Shown one piece after another: positions 10,604 to 13,018 of a stretch of DNA of 32,756 bases. The DNA is taken from the IMG/VR virus record IMGVR_UViG_2541047689_000008. The stretch is one strand, 5' to 3'. The DNA comes from a virus (Duplodnaviria > Heunggongvirae > Uroviricota > Caudoviricetes). The position numbers and the translations under genes are program-made. The notes under the pieces were generated by a model. The model was not told the DNA's origin, did no database searches, and saw nothing but the letters and a program-made list of their open reading frames with translations. Positions within the stretch are counted from its first letter, which is position 1, and every line of letters begins with the position of its first letter.

Positions 10604-12570
10604 AACCATCCTCCGGAAGTCAGCCAGGGGTTAACATCGTCAGTTACTGTTTTCTTCCGTTTTTGTTTTTTAACAGGCGTGGATACCGGTTCCGGTGAGG
10701 GTGACGGTTCGGTACTGTCCGGGACACACTCCAGCCAGGTTTCCCGGCTCGCCCACTCCGGTGCATCCGGCCAGCGGATCTTTTCGTATCCATGCAGAAT
10801 GACCAGAGCCTCGGCATACACCATCAGGTCAAAAGCTTCGTTGGCACCGCGACCCGGCTTACTCCATTTCCCGTCACTGCTCCGCTCTTCATACGTCAGT
10901 TCGTCGTAAAACCAGCTCCCCAGCCAGTCAGGGAAATGCACATAGCCGGGACCTGGCGAGTCACGCCATAACGCGTTATTCACCCGGTCTTTCAGTGCAT
11001 CCGTCTGAAGAAGCCAGAGCGGCACATCACCTGCGGCCTGCGCCCGTCGGCCCGTTCGTCCGGTGTTATCAGGGAATGTACGGGTGATCAGTTTTGCGCG
11101 CCGGATGCTGTCGCCCTTAAACAGGTAAATACGTTTACCAAGGCCATCACGACGGCAACGACGCCAGAATTTATAGGCATTATCAGTGACCCCGTCTTCA
11201 CCGCCGGAGTCCACCGCCATTGCCATCAGTCGCATTTGTTGAGAAGGATCGGAGGCCAGCGGCCAGCTTTTATGAAAAACATCCGTCAGCAGGACATCCC
11301 AGTCTTCCGGATAGCTGGCCGGATCAATTCGCTGGCTCTCCCCGTCGCAGTCACTGCGCAATGACTGCGTGATATTGTAACGATCAATAATCCAGCGTTC
11401 GCCACGACTGCCATAGCCCGTTACCTGAACCACAAAACGGCGATGACGTCCCGCCTGCACATCCACTGTCGCCACAAGGAAATTAACGCCATCCGGCACA
11501 CTGCAGGAAGGAACTGGCTCTGCCCGCTGCTCAAGCAGTTCACTTTTTCGTTGCTCCATGCTGGCACGAGGAAGATAAGGCAATCCCCAGTCGGTGTTGA
11601 TAACCGCCCTGAGTGTTTCTTCGCTTCCTGTCGCTTCATACTCCTGTTCTGCAGTCAGTAATTTGTAAACCAGTTGCGCCCAGGTCTGATACGCAGCAGC
11701 TGGCCCTTCCATCCAGAAACTGGCGATACGGGAGCGGCGCGGTTCACCGGAAACGTTGCCGTTACGATCAATGACCTGACCTTCACGCAACCAGACTCCT
11801 GCACTATTGAGCTCACGCTTTTTCTCCGCAGTGATAATGCCGCTGCAGTGCGGGCAAAGTAGATACGCCGCCTCACTGGCTTTAAAGGGATCCGGTTCAT
11901 TACGGTAGCCGGTCATGGCATCCATAGCTGGCTGAAAATATTCACCGCAGTGCGGACATGGCCAGTACCAGCGGCGGCGGTCACCACGATTGTAAAGGGA
12001 AAGAATACCAGTCGTCGGTGGCGCTTCATGAGGCGACTTACGTCGCCATTTGCTGTCGCAGATGTCACGTCCCGGCGAGCTCTCCACCAGAGTCATCCCG
12101 GCGGACATAAATGTGGTGGTACGTTTTGAGGCCAGGGAGAAACCATCACCCTCGCTGTCGATATTCTCCGGAAAACGGTCGTAATCGGTTAAGGCGACAA
12201 ACCGGTAATCCGACGACGACATAATGTTGACCGAGGGCCAACCAATTTTAAGGAACGAGCCATCCCTGAACGTCTTATCATGGACATTATTGTCGTTACG
12301 ACGTGGACTCATTCTTTTCTTTACCGCCGCACTGCTTCTGAACGTTCTGTCGAGGCGCTTTTTAGAATGCTCGCGGGCCTTATCTTCGGTCATCTGCACA
12401 ACGAGCATGTCCGAAGGATCGCAAACGATGGTATAGACAATCCATCCATCGATCAGACCAATGGTCTTCCCTGTTCGCGCAGGACCAACAAAAATCACCG
12501 CATCGTATTCACGCGATGCCAGGCAGTTCAAGGGCTCAATGATGTAGGGTGTCAGTTCAGGATCCCACAC
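10600..12570 (-). CDS. Terminase large subunit (GpA family), apparently N-terminally truncated
   Basis: Walker-A-like VGPARTGKT near residue 30; ...WYWPCPHCGE... zinc-ribbon-like segment and a GpA-family C-terminal nuclease region. The frame opens with GTG directly after an in-frame TAA at 12574-12576 and has no Shine-Dalgarno sequence. Residue 2 (W) aligns to about residue 51 of lambda A. Confidence 0.8.
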   Translation of the reverse strand: MWDPELTPYIIEPLNCLASREYDAVIFVGPARTGKTIGLIDGWIVYTIVCDPSDMLVVQMTEDKAREHSKKRLDRTFRSSAAVKKRMSPRRNDNNVHDKTFRDGSFLKIGWPSVNIMSSSDYRFVALTDYDRFPENIDSEGDGFSLASKRTTTFMSAGMTLVESSPGRDICDSKWRRKSPHEAPPTTGILSLYNRGDRRRWYWPCPHCGEYFQPAMDAMTGYRNEPDPFKASEAAYLLCPHCSGIITAEKKRELNSAGVWLREGQVIDRNGNVSGEPRRSRIASFWMEGPAAAYQTWAQLVYKLLTAEQEYEATGSEETLRAVINTDWGLPYLPRASMEQRKSELLEQRAEPVPSCSVPDGVNFLVATVDVQAGRHRRFVVQVTGYGSRGERWIIDRYNITQSLRSDCDGESQRIDPASYPEDWDVLLTDVFHKSWPLASDPSQQMRLMAMAVDSGGEDGVTDNAYKFWRRCRRDGLGKRIYLFKGDSIRRAKLITRTFPDNTGRTGRRAQAAGDVPLWLLQTDALKDRVNNALWRDSPGPGYVHFPDWLGSWFYDELTYEERSSDGKWSKPGRGANEAFDLMVYAEALVILHGYEKIRWPDAPEWASRETWLECVPDSTEPSPSPEPVSTPVKKQKRKKTVTDDVNPWLTSGGWL

Positions 12571-12811
12571 AAATTAGTGTGAGTGTCCTGTTTCTTCCTA
12601 CGCACAGGACTGACGAGCATGAGGGGAAAATACGCGAACCATAAATGCCTCATCTTCAGCAATGCAGCCGAACAGGACGATATTGTAAATTCACCTAATT
12701 ACGAGGACATTGCAGTAGTTGAATTGCAGCTCTGTATTAGCCTGCAGTGACAGAATGCGATATTGACTCTGTCACAGGTGAAATAGTTTGAATGATTAGC
12801 AGTTATGGTGC

Positions 12812-13018
12812 TCAGTCAACCACCAGGGAATAATCCTTCGAATTCTTATCGTGCTTCACCAACGCTGCCTCAATTGCCCTGAATGCTTCCAGAGACACCT
12901 GATGTTCTATACATGCAATTACAACATCCGGGTAACTCATAGAAATGGTGCTATTAAGCATATTTTTTACACGAATCAGATCCAACGAGAGTTCATCAGC
13001 AGATTGTTCTTTATTCAT
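12812..13018 (-). CDS. Hypothetical small protein (moron; possibly YnfO-like)
   Basis: 68 aa ORF in an AT-rich block; identity uncertain. Confidence 0.4.

Follow-up and report, generated by a model that had tools for sequence, protein, structure and literature searches.

A 980-bp internal deletion removes the packaging start of a Qin-locus lambdoid prophage of Escherichia coli

The DNA analysed here (32,756 bases, hereafter the window) carries a lambdoid prophage that differs from its closest intact relative by the absence of 980 bp at a single point. In a comparison with the prophage of E. coli NZ_OZ040973.1, all 32,756 bases of the window were 100% identical, the relative having 980 extra bases at the junction. 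The tetranucleotide TGGG is found at both ends of these 980 bp in intact relatives and forms the junction of the window at 12564..12567 (minus strand), the left block of identity ending at 12567 and the right block beginning at 12564 with an offset difference of 980 bp, as determined by ungapped extension against strain N1420 (NZ_CP176489.1) and by exact comparison with NZ_OZ040973.1. Alignment to N1420 showed the same 980-bp gap, as did alignment to about 400 other genomes. One recent internal deletion between the two TGGG tetranucleotides explains the window, a reading to which we give a probability of about 0.9; within this explanation, the observed part consists of the deletion itself, exactly what it took away, and the fact that it is unique and recent. 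Sister prophages that occupy the same locus in intact form (NZ_OZ040973.1, NZ_OZ040192.1, NZ_OZ039653.1 and N1420) share with the window the integration site adjoining rspB, the gene order and the block of accessory genes but, unlike the window, retain the 980 bp holding cosQ-cosN-cosB, the small terminase gene (terS) and codons 1–44 of the large terminase gene (terL).

The window was identified as a Qin-locus prophage from the annotation of the identical sequence, in which the integrase adjoins rspB. Its gene order runs from the integrase through dicB/DicF, hokD/sok, the Q antiterminator, the lysis genes and the csp/gns accessory genes to the head and tail genes, and its Qin-type features comprise the essD-ydfR-rrrQ-rzpQ lysis genes, the accessory genes cspB/cspF/cspI, gnsB, ynfN and a ydfO-like gene, and the rspB-ydfK locus. 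Rfam searches identified DicF, sok and two cspA leaders, and Pfam searches the Antiterm and DUF968 domains. The head and tail genes downstream of the lesion (1..10609, minus strand) include a 70-aa gene in the gpW position, the portal, a ClpP-protease/major-capsid fusion, head completion and tail genes, the tape measure and the first gene after it, J and the tail-fibre end of the prophage lying outside the window. These genes are unaffected by the lesion, with 100% ungapped identity to NZ_OZ040973.1 and all CDSs annotated as intact.

In relatives, the annotation of the deleted interval comprises a DUF1441 protein and the first part of a large terminase subunit of 699 aa. In the direction of transcription, it contains 116 bp upstream of cosN that include a lambda-type cosQ (GGGTCCT), the 12-nt cosN (GGGCGGGAGCGT), a cosB-like region of roughly 185 bp, the whole DUF1441 terS and terL codons 1–44, which places cosN at distances of 116 bp and about 850 bp from the two ends of the interval. 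The cos position of this phage group was assigned from where two deposited phage records begin and end and from homology to lambda. Specifically, the records of phage cdtI (AB285204 / NC_009514) and phage Tritos (OV696610) both begin exactly at GGGCGGGAGCGT, within the deleted interval, with Tritos ending in ...CCACG just before it, and the region of the relatives aligns with lambda cosQ (GGGTCCT) and cosN (GGGCGGCGACCT), cosN differing from that of lambda only at bp 7, 8, 9 and 11. Natural variation in cosN is largely confined to bp 7–12, and cosQ is conserved (Feiss et al. 2015, PMC4669245). The intact relative further has two exact TTTCACCTGT repeats 94 and 171 bp downstream of cosN, both in the deleted interval, which are putative R sites, the TerS-binding repeats of cosB. 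The DUF1441 protein of the relatives matched phrog_141, “terminase small subunit” (E = 3e-64).

A first reading of the window from its letters only (the sequence-only reading) had reported neither a small subunit nor a cos region, and proposed searching the rest of the genome for both. Within the window this search agreed with that report: the cosN of the relatives found no match, even at 3 mismatches, and tblastn gave no match for DUF1441 TerS or lambda Nu1 (E > 0.4) or for the missing N-terminus of TerL (E > 0.2). Likewise, the window has lost the cosQ (GGGTCCT) that lambda-like cos phages carry some 30 bp ahead of cosN, together with the putative cosB repeats on the other side of cosN, all of which lie in the deleted interval of the intact relative. 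The possibility that another terS, cos or terL 5' end lies at a different place in the window, as an inversion might have left it, was also considered and discarded on the basis of the tblastn and cosN searches.

The deletion may have been produced by RecA-independent illegitimate recombination, through either replication slippage or microhomology-mediated end joining, a mechanism suggested solely by the 4-bp microhomology. An IS-mediated deletion was considered, as genome H21 carries an IS1 in this interval, and rejected since no IS sequence occurs at or near the junction. A further possibility, which we regard as unlikely although it survives better than the other alternatives, is that the junction is a repair scar left after terminase had cleaved the chromosomal cos, the enzyme being that of this prophage or of a co-resident one with the same specificity, followed by exonuclease resection, joining at the first usable microhomology and selection of the cos-less survivor. 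Cleavage of cos by lambda terminase can take place in a prophage that has not been excised, and an alternative end-joining pathway that depends on RecBCD and ligase A exists in E. coli. The location of cosN within the deleted interval is in keeping with such an origin, and a 4-bp microhomology suits end joining as well as slippage. However, nothing in the data points to a terminase cut specifically, as any 980-bp deletion at this place includes cos by position alone and a single event cannot separate the mechanisms. If the junction were such a scar, cos-centred microhomology deletions would represent a recurrent, self-inflicted “grounding” of lambdoid prophages in which complete head, tail and lysis modules are kept.

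The deletion is private and very recent. A 160-nt junction probe gave no single-piece match in 5,426 complete E. coli genomes, which makes it private; the exact 37-nt junction also had 0 matches in the GTDB species-representative genomes. The junction was found in the NCBI draft assembly GCA_000456225.1 and in the Logan read-level assembly of SRR784399, two records that may represent one strain or the same reads. This rarity could also be expected of an assembly or laboratory artefact in a natural strain having the intact interval, since the two carrier records may stem from one isolate and the deletion may have arisen during its laboratory culture. We consider this very unlikely, as the NCBI draft and Logan, obtained with two different assemblers, yield the same junction, an assembly cannot collapse over a homology of 4 bases, and the contig is reported in 4 samples (Logan) and 2 (NCBI).

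The sequence-only reading had described the site as a recombination junction. An exchange with another phage or a cryptic prophage, swapping terS and cos for a foreign AT-rich block, would be in keeping with the mosaic nature of lambdoid prophages, and the two sides of the junction could have different ancestries judging from N1420, which shows 3 mismatches in 12,567 bp (99.98% identity) with window positions 1–12567, the side of the structural genes, and only 97.8% identity over 9.4 kb to the right. Nevertheless, at least 1 kb on either side of the junction is identical to N1420, NZ_OZ040973.1 has one contiguous prophage that matches both sides at 100% identity, and the junction holds no foreign sequence, merely lacking 980 bp, so that a mosaic origin has next to no probability and “recombination junction” gives way to a deletion with a 4-bp microhomology. 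The reverse case, in which terS and cos were a secondary insertion into a terS-less ancestor, is implausible given phages cdtI and Tritos.

The sequence upstream of the junction further argues against a foreign block. The retained 244-bp intergenic region between cos and a ybcW-like gene (12568..12811, minus strand) corresponds in relatives to the part more than 116 bp upstream of cosN; it is identical to that of intact relatives and holds the sole surviving copy of the TTTCACCTGT motif (12774–12783). The adjacent 68-aa ORF (12812..13018, minus strand), thought to be ynfO-like in the sequence-only reading, matched phrog_657 (E = 5e-47) with no Pfam match and is annotated as YbcW in phage Tritos, whereas K-12 YnfO (DUF3950), compared by annotation, carries a different label and lies on the opposite strand. 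The 3' part of this ybcW-like gene is 88.7% identical to lambda 47879–48089. In this phage group the gene normally stands upstream of cos, where the intact prophages also have it, and it does not belong to the lesion. Beyond it, the accessory-gene (moron) block (13304..15100) comprises a ydfO-like DUF1398 gene on the plus strand, gnsB, ynfN, ynfR, ynfQ and cspI with a cspA-type 5' leader (Rfam cspA thermoregulator at 14702–15087), with the same genes in the same order in intact relatives and K-12 Qin. Although the AT-rich block had been interpreted as standing in place of terS and cos, intact relatives too have the ybcW-like/DUF1398/gnsB/ynfN/cspI genes between their lysis genes and cos, as in part does lambda; the block is the usual upstream neighbour of cos and sits in the same place in the intact prophages.

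An 8-bp inverted repeat that had been noticed in the junction region is indeed present, at 12747–12754 and 12768–12775, one base to the left of where it had been placed, and is one of eight comparable repeats in 400 bp. It does not mark the junction, because it also occurs with identical sequence in intact relatives. A role as terminator, cos element or recombination site was considered and rejected: the repeat has no T-run, was not flagged by the terminator scan and is unchanged in the intact relatives.

On the other side of the junction, the 5'-truncated terL (10600..12570, minus strand) forms an ORF of 656 aa in which codons 45–699 of the intact gene (2100 nt in relatives) are fused to a fortuitous GTG. 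This GTG (12570–12568) was created by the junction, its bases deriving from sequence upstream of cos. The minus strand reads ...CAC TAA TTT GTG TGG GAT CCT..., with TAA at 12576–12574, which bears out the earlier description of a frame closed by TAA above a GTG without a Shine-Dalgarno sequence and places the single codon TTT between the two. In the 20 nt 5' of the GTG (GGACACTCACACTAATTT) there is no GGAG or AGGA at a usable distance, the nearest AGGA ending 17 nt upstream. The predicted product retains the domains of a GpA-type large terminase, with matches to PF05876 (GpA_ATPase, E = 4e-79, profile positions 7–247) and PF20454 (GpA_nuclease, E = 2e-86, full length) and a Walker A motif GPARTGKT; what it lacks is the N-terminal extension, 44 codons being gone, and a real translation start. 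Its second residue, W2, corresponds in alignment to W45 of the full-length TerL (699 aa) and to W51 of lambda gpA, the residue near which the sequence-only reading had placed it. The N-terminal domain of lambda TerL holds the TerS-binding domain (PMC9026076), and by alignment the lost 44 codons correspond to the part of lambda gpA (about residues 1–48) assigned to TerS binding. The claim that the Nu1-interacting N-terminus is missing is upheld in this sense, the segment matching the TerS-binding N-terminus of lambda gpA being gone. That the short TerL is instead native and functional from its GTG, with a small subunit and packaging site elsewhere, is extremely improbable despite its complete ATPase (Walker A) and nuclease domains, as the GTG is junction-created and has no Shine-Dalgarno sequence, the window contains neither cos nor terS, and all relatives, including isolated phages, have the 699-aa form after terS.

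The deletion most likely makes the prophage packaging-dead. Comparison with relatives established that cos, terS and the terL 5' end are gone, and their essentiality is taken from lambda genetics (PMC4669245), where the start of packaging needs cosN and cosB and its end needs cosQ and cosN. By analogy with lambda, the late transcript may still cross the junction, in which case lysis, prohead and tail proteins could be made on induction. No terminase holoenzyme would be expected to form, and the prophage DNA would offer no site at which any terminase could begin or end packaging. On the same grounds, rescue by a helper phage would be impossible because cos acts in cis, and recombination with a related prophage would be the only route to restoration. 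The sequence-only reading had proposed an intact head and tail module in a prophage unable to package its own DNA; the first part holds for those head and tail genes that the window contains, as seen from the 100% ungapped identity over 1–12567, and the second we infer strongly from the lost elements.

The loss is an ordinary step in prophage decay. An automated annotator would label this prophage “intact”, as it carries a full set of head, tail, lysis, regulatory and integration genes together with a 656-aa terminase having both Pfam domains. With a base-for-base identical intact sister as a control, it provides a clean example of the first step in prophage domestication that may be of use in teaching or in benchmarking tools that score prophage completeness. 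Its value is otherwise mostly one of bookkeeping; it opens no new biological question and holds no surprise for the specialist.

The closest complete phage genomes are those of phages cdtI and Tritos, in which the terS-terL region is 98.9–99.6% identical to that of the intact relative. Both encode a 699-aa TerL with terS and cos directly upstream, so that functional relatives sharing the short terL start, which would have spoken against a truncation, are not found in these two phages. Set against their genome maps, what is missing from the window is exactly the initial ~864 bp (cosN to terL codon 44) plus the final 116 bp. The intact relative also shares with lambda the type of cosQ, the left half of cosN and a small subunit gene located just downstream of cos, and its TerL is GpA-type like that of lambda (24% identity), whereas its TerS is a DUF1441 protein with no BLAST-detectable similarity to lambda Nu1 and its head, unlike that of lambda, uses a ClpP-protease/capsid fusion protein. 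The phenotype expected of the window prophage would be that of lambda cos- or Nu1-A- mutants, i.e. lysis with empty proheads and tails. K-12 cryptic prophage Qin has, like the window, the ydfK/pinQ-end type of chromosomal neighbourhood; both contain ydfO, gnsB, ynfN, ynfR, ynfQ, cspI, rzpQ, rrrQ, ydfR, essQ, cspB and cspF, and DicF and hokD/sok are also present in the window. In K-12 Qin, however, the whole head/tail module is gone and nohA, a Nu1 homologue, abuts stfQ, whereas the window keeps its head and tail genes. The lesion in the window, which affects only the packaging start, is an earlier and different decay step than that seen in K-12 Qin.

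With a 2-kb query across the junction, about 400 complete E. coli genomes gave matches of up to 99.9% identity. Among the matches listed, these always fell into two pieces, and the roughly 980 extra bases between them are annotated in the matched genomes as coding for a DUF1441 family protein and the first part of a phage terminase large subunit. Against strain N1420 (NZ_CP176489.1), the left block was mismatch-free up to window position 12567 and the right block started at 12564, with an offset difference between the blocks of exactly 980 bp. The motif TGGG (phage strand) was found at both breakpoints, the upstream one reading ...TAATTTGTG-TGGG-CATGCTG... 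and that inside the large terminase gene (terL) ...GGTGCCA-TGGG-ATCCTGA.... The prophage of E. coli isolate 30821_1#335 (NZ_OZ040973.1) was 100% identical over all 32,756 window bases, from the tail genes to the integrase, its sole difference being the additional 980 bp. A single deletion within the prophage, bounded by 4-bp direct repeats, accounts for the difference, and it is recent enough that the two sequences have diverged by no other substitution. Replication slippage or microhomology-mediated joining would be the simplest mechanism; an unsupported alternative, which would fit the position of cosN within the deleted interval, is that terminase cut the cos in the chromosome and the break was then repaired. 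The recombination junction proposed in the sequence-only reading is ruled out, since both flanks are the same prophage in NZ_OZ040973.1, where the 980 bp are simply extra; that reading was right on the missing parts and their probable consequence, and wrong on the origin.

A 160-nt junction probe gave a single-piece match in none of 5,426 complete E. coli genomes, and the exact 37-nt junction was not found among GTDB species representatives. The exact 656-aa product of the truncated terL is on record in the NCBI draft GCA_000456225.1 (scaffold KE698940.1, 1.63 Mb) and in the Logan assembly of run SRR784399, with these contigs reported from two (NCBI) and four (Logan) samples. Each of these loci is contained base for base in the window, so that two assemblers agree on the junction, and a collapse during assembly from 4 bp of homology is not possible. 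The NCBI and Logan records may trace to one isolate. In another E. coli genome, NZ_CP053787.1, an IS1B element interrupts the same terS-terL interval; here the packaging start of this prophage family was inactivated independently.

Read from an intact relative in the direction of late transcription, the deleted interval comprises 116 bp of intergenic DNA, the sequence ACG/GGGCGGGAGCGT/CGCGG with cosN, about 185 bp of AT-rich DNA, a DUF1441 gene (terS, 175 aa), an 8-bp spacer and codons 1-44 of terL (699 aa when intact), so that cosQ, cosN, a cosB-like region, terS and the terL 5' end are all removed. The records of phages cdtI (AB285204 / NC_009514) and Tritos (OV696610) both open at the first G of GGGCGGGAGCGT, and that of Tritos terminates in ...CCACG, immediately before it. 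Compared with lambda, the cos of the intact relative reads TCGGGTCC-TCCCGGTG...ACG/GGGCGGGAGCGT/CGCGG against ACGGGTCCTTTCCGGTG...ACG/GGGCGGCGACCT/CGCGG, the cosN differences falling at bp 7, 8, 9 and 11; this is a pattern described for lambda-like phages, in which bp 7-12 often vary while cosQ is conserved, and Gifsy-1 cosN differs at bp 8, 9 and 11 (PMC4669245, Feiss et al.). The DUF1441 protein carries the annotation "terminase small subunit" in the cdtI and Tritos records, and its PHROG match is the family of that name, PHROG 141 (E = 3e-64). In the window, tblastn searches with this TerS and lambda Nu1 gave only noise (E > 0.2), as did the 47 N-terminal residues of intact TerL (E > 0.2), and cosN had no match even at three mismatches, in line with the earlier claim that small subunit and cos are absent.

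In the N1420 prophage (locus L002), exact copies of TTTCACCTGT occur on one strand around cos at 22935, 23361 and 23438, i.e. 332 bp upstream and +94 and +171 bp downstream of cosN, with no other exact copy in 39 kb. Those at +94 and +171 bp are candidate TerS-binding (R) sites of cosB, to which the DUF1441 TerS would bind. The window retains the copy upstream of cosN alone (12774-12783, minus strand), possibly an accessory site of the R4 type. Two of its bases fall within the right arm of an 8-bp inverted repeat pointed out earlier, which is real but lies at 12747-12754 / 12768-12775 and not at the coordinates first assigned; a 400-bp stretch contains eight inverted repeats of this kind, this one included.

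The remaining terL ORF (10600-12570, minus strand, 656 aa) begins at a junction reading ...CAC TAA TTT GTG TGG GAT CCT GAA..., in which a single codon, TTT, separates the GTG (12570-12568) from the TAA (12576-12574) that closes the frame. With the nearest AGGA ending 17 nt away on its upstream side, this GTG has no usable ribosome-binding site; it is an accident of the junction, its bases having originally lain upstream of cos. The BLASTP alignment with lambda gpA opens at ORF residue 5 opposite gpA residue 52; in a multiple alignment W2 stands opposite gpA W51 and W45 of the intact homologue, which bears out the sequence-only placement near residue 51. By Pfam, the GpA nuclease domain is complete and the GpA ATPase domain starts from profile position 7.

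TerL is anchored at cos by TerS (PMC4669245), and the TerS-binding domain lies within the N-terminal domain of lambda TerL (PMC9026076). Given these roles in lambda, the prophage would be left without packaging site or small subunit and, at best, with a large subunit that is untranslated or TerS-blind. A helper phage would be unable to rescue the element, since cos acts in cis in lambda, and probably only recombination with a related prophage could do so. The late operon appears otherwise continuous, and on induction the prophage should still replicate, lyse its host and form proheads and tails; translational coupling of the small gene overlapping the terL stop (ATGA overlap) may be lost.

The gene next to the junction (12812-13018, minus strand, 68 aa), earlier labelled ynfO-like, is a phrog_657 homologue annotated as YbcW in phage Tritos; its product had no Pfam match, and K-12 YnfO (DUF3950, other strand) differs from it in annotation. 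The 3' part of this gene shares 88.7% DNA identity with lambda 47879-48089, just upstream of lambda cos, so that lambda itself has this small gene upstream of its cos. In intact prophages too, ybcW-like, DUF1398, gnsB, ynfN, ynfR, ynfQ and cspI lie between the lysis cassette and cos; the accessory block is therefore a normal neighbour of cos and did not replace terS and cos, as had been supposed.

On the minus strand at 22270-23908, the prophage also carries a dCTP deaminase gene of anti-phage defence (PADLOC dCTPase, E = 1e-134; Pfam dCMP_cyt_deam_1). E. coli KK19-02 and SJC33 have this gene intact (545 aa, 99.6% identical); in the window a 1-bp insertion, one additional T near 23395, shifts the frame and leaves two ORFs that overlap (23324-23908 and 22270-23541). 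The three sister genomes share this frameshift, and there the gene is annotated "hypothetical protein" plus "deaminase"; among 5,426 complete genomes the segment is present in only 6. Between hokD and the replication genes (DUF977) lies a cargo hotspot (window 21929-24076; L002 12414-13799), which holds the deaminase gene in the window and a SIR2-family gene in the otherwise nearly identical N1420 prophage. Rfam matches above gathering score were DicF (27950-28001, plus strand) and, on the minus strand, the sok antitoxin RNA of hokD (21543-21717) and cspA-type thermoregulator leaders upstream of cspB (17597-17989) and cspI (14702-15087), the standard RNA set of Qin-type prophages; no tRNA genes were found in the window.

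Inactivating deletions are commonplace in prophages; the present case adds a new allele of a familiar type and is an ordinary finding. The intact relatives have the packaging module of phages cdtI and Tritos (98.9-99.6% identity). The window, adjoining rspB, is a Qin-type prophage sharing with K-12 Qin the accessory genes, DicF, hokD/sok and the lysis genes. In K-12 Qin a Nu1 homologue (nohA) remains but the head and tail genes are gone entirely; the window is the opposite, an earlier stage of decay.
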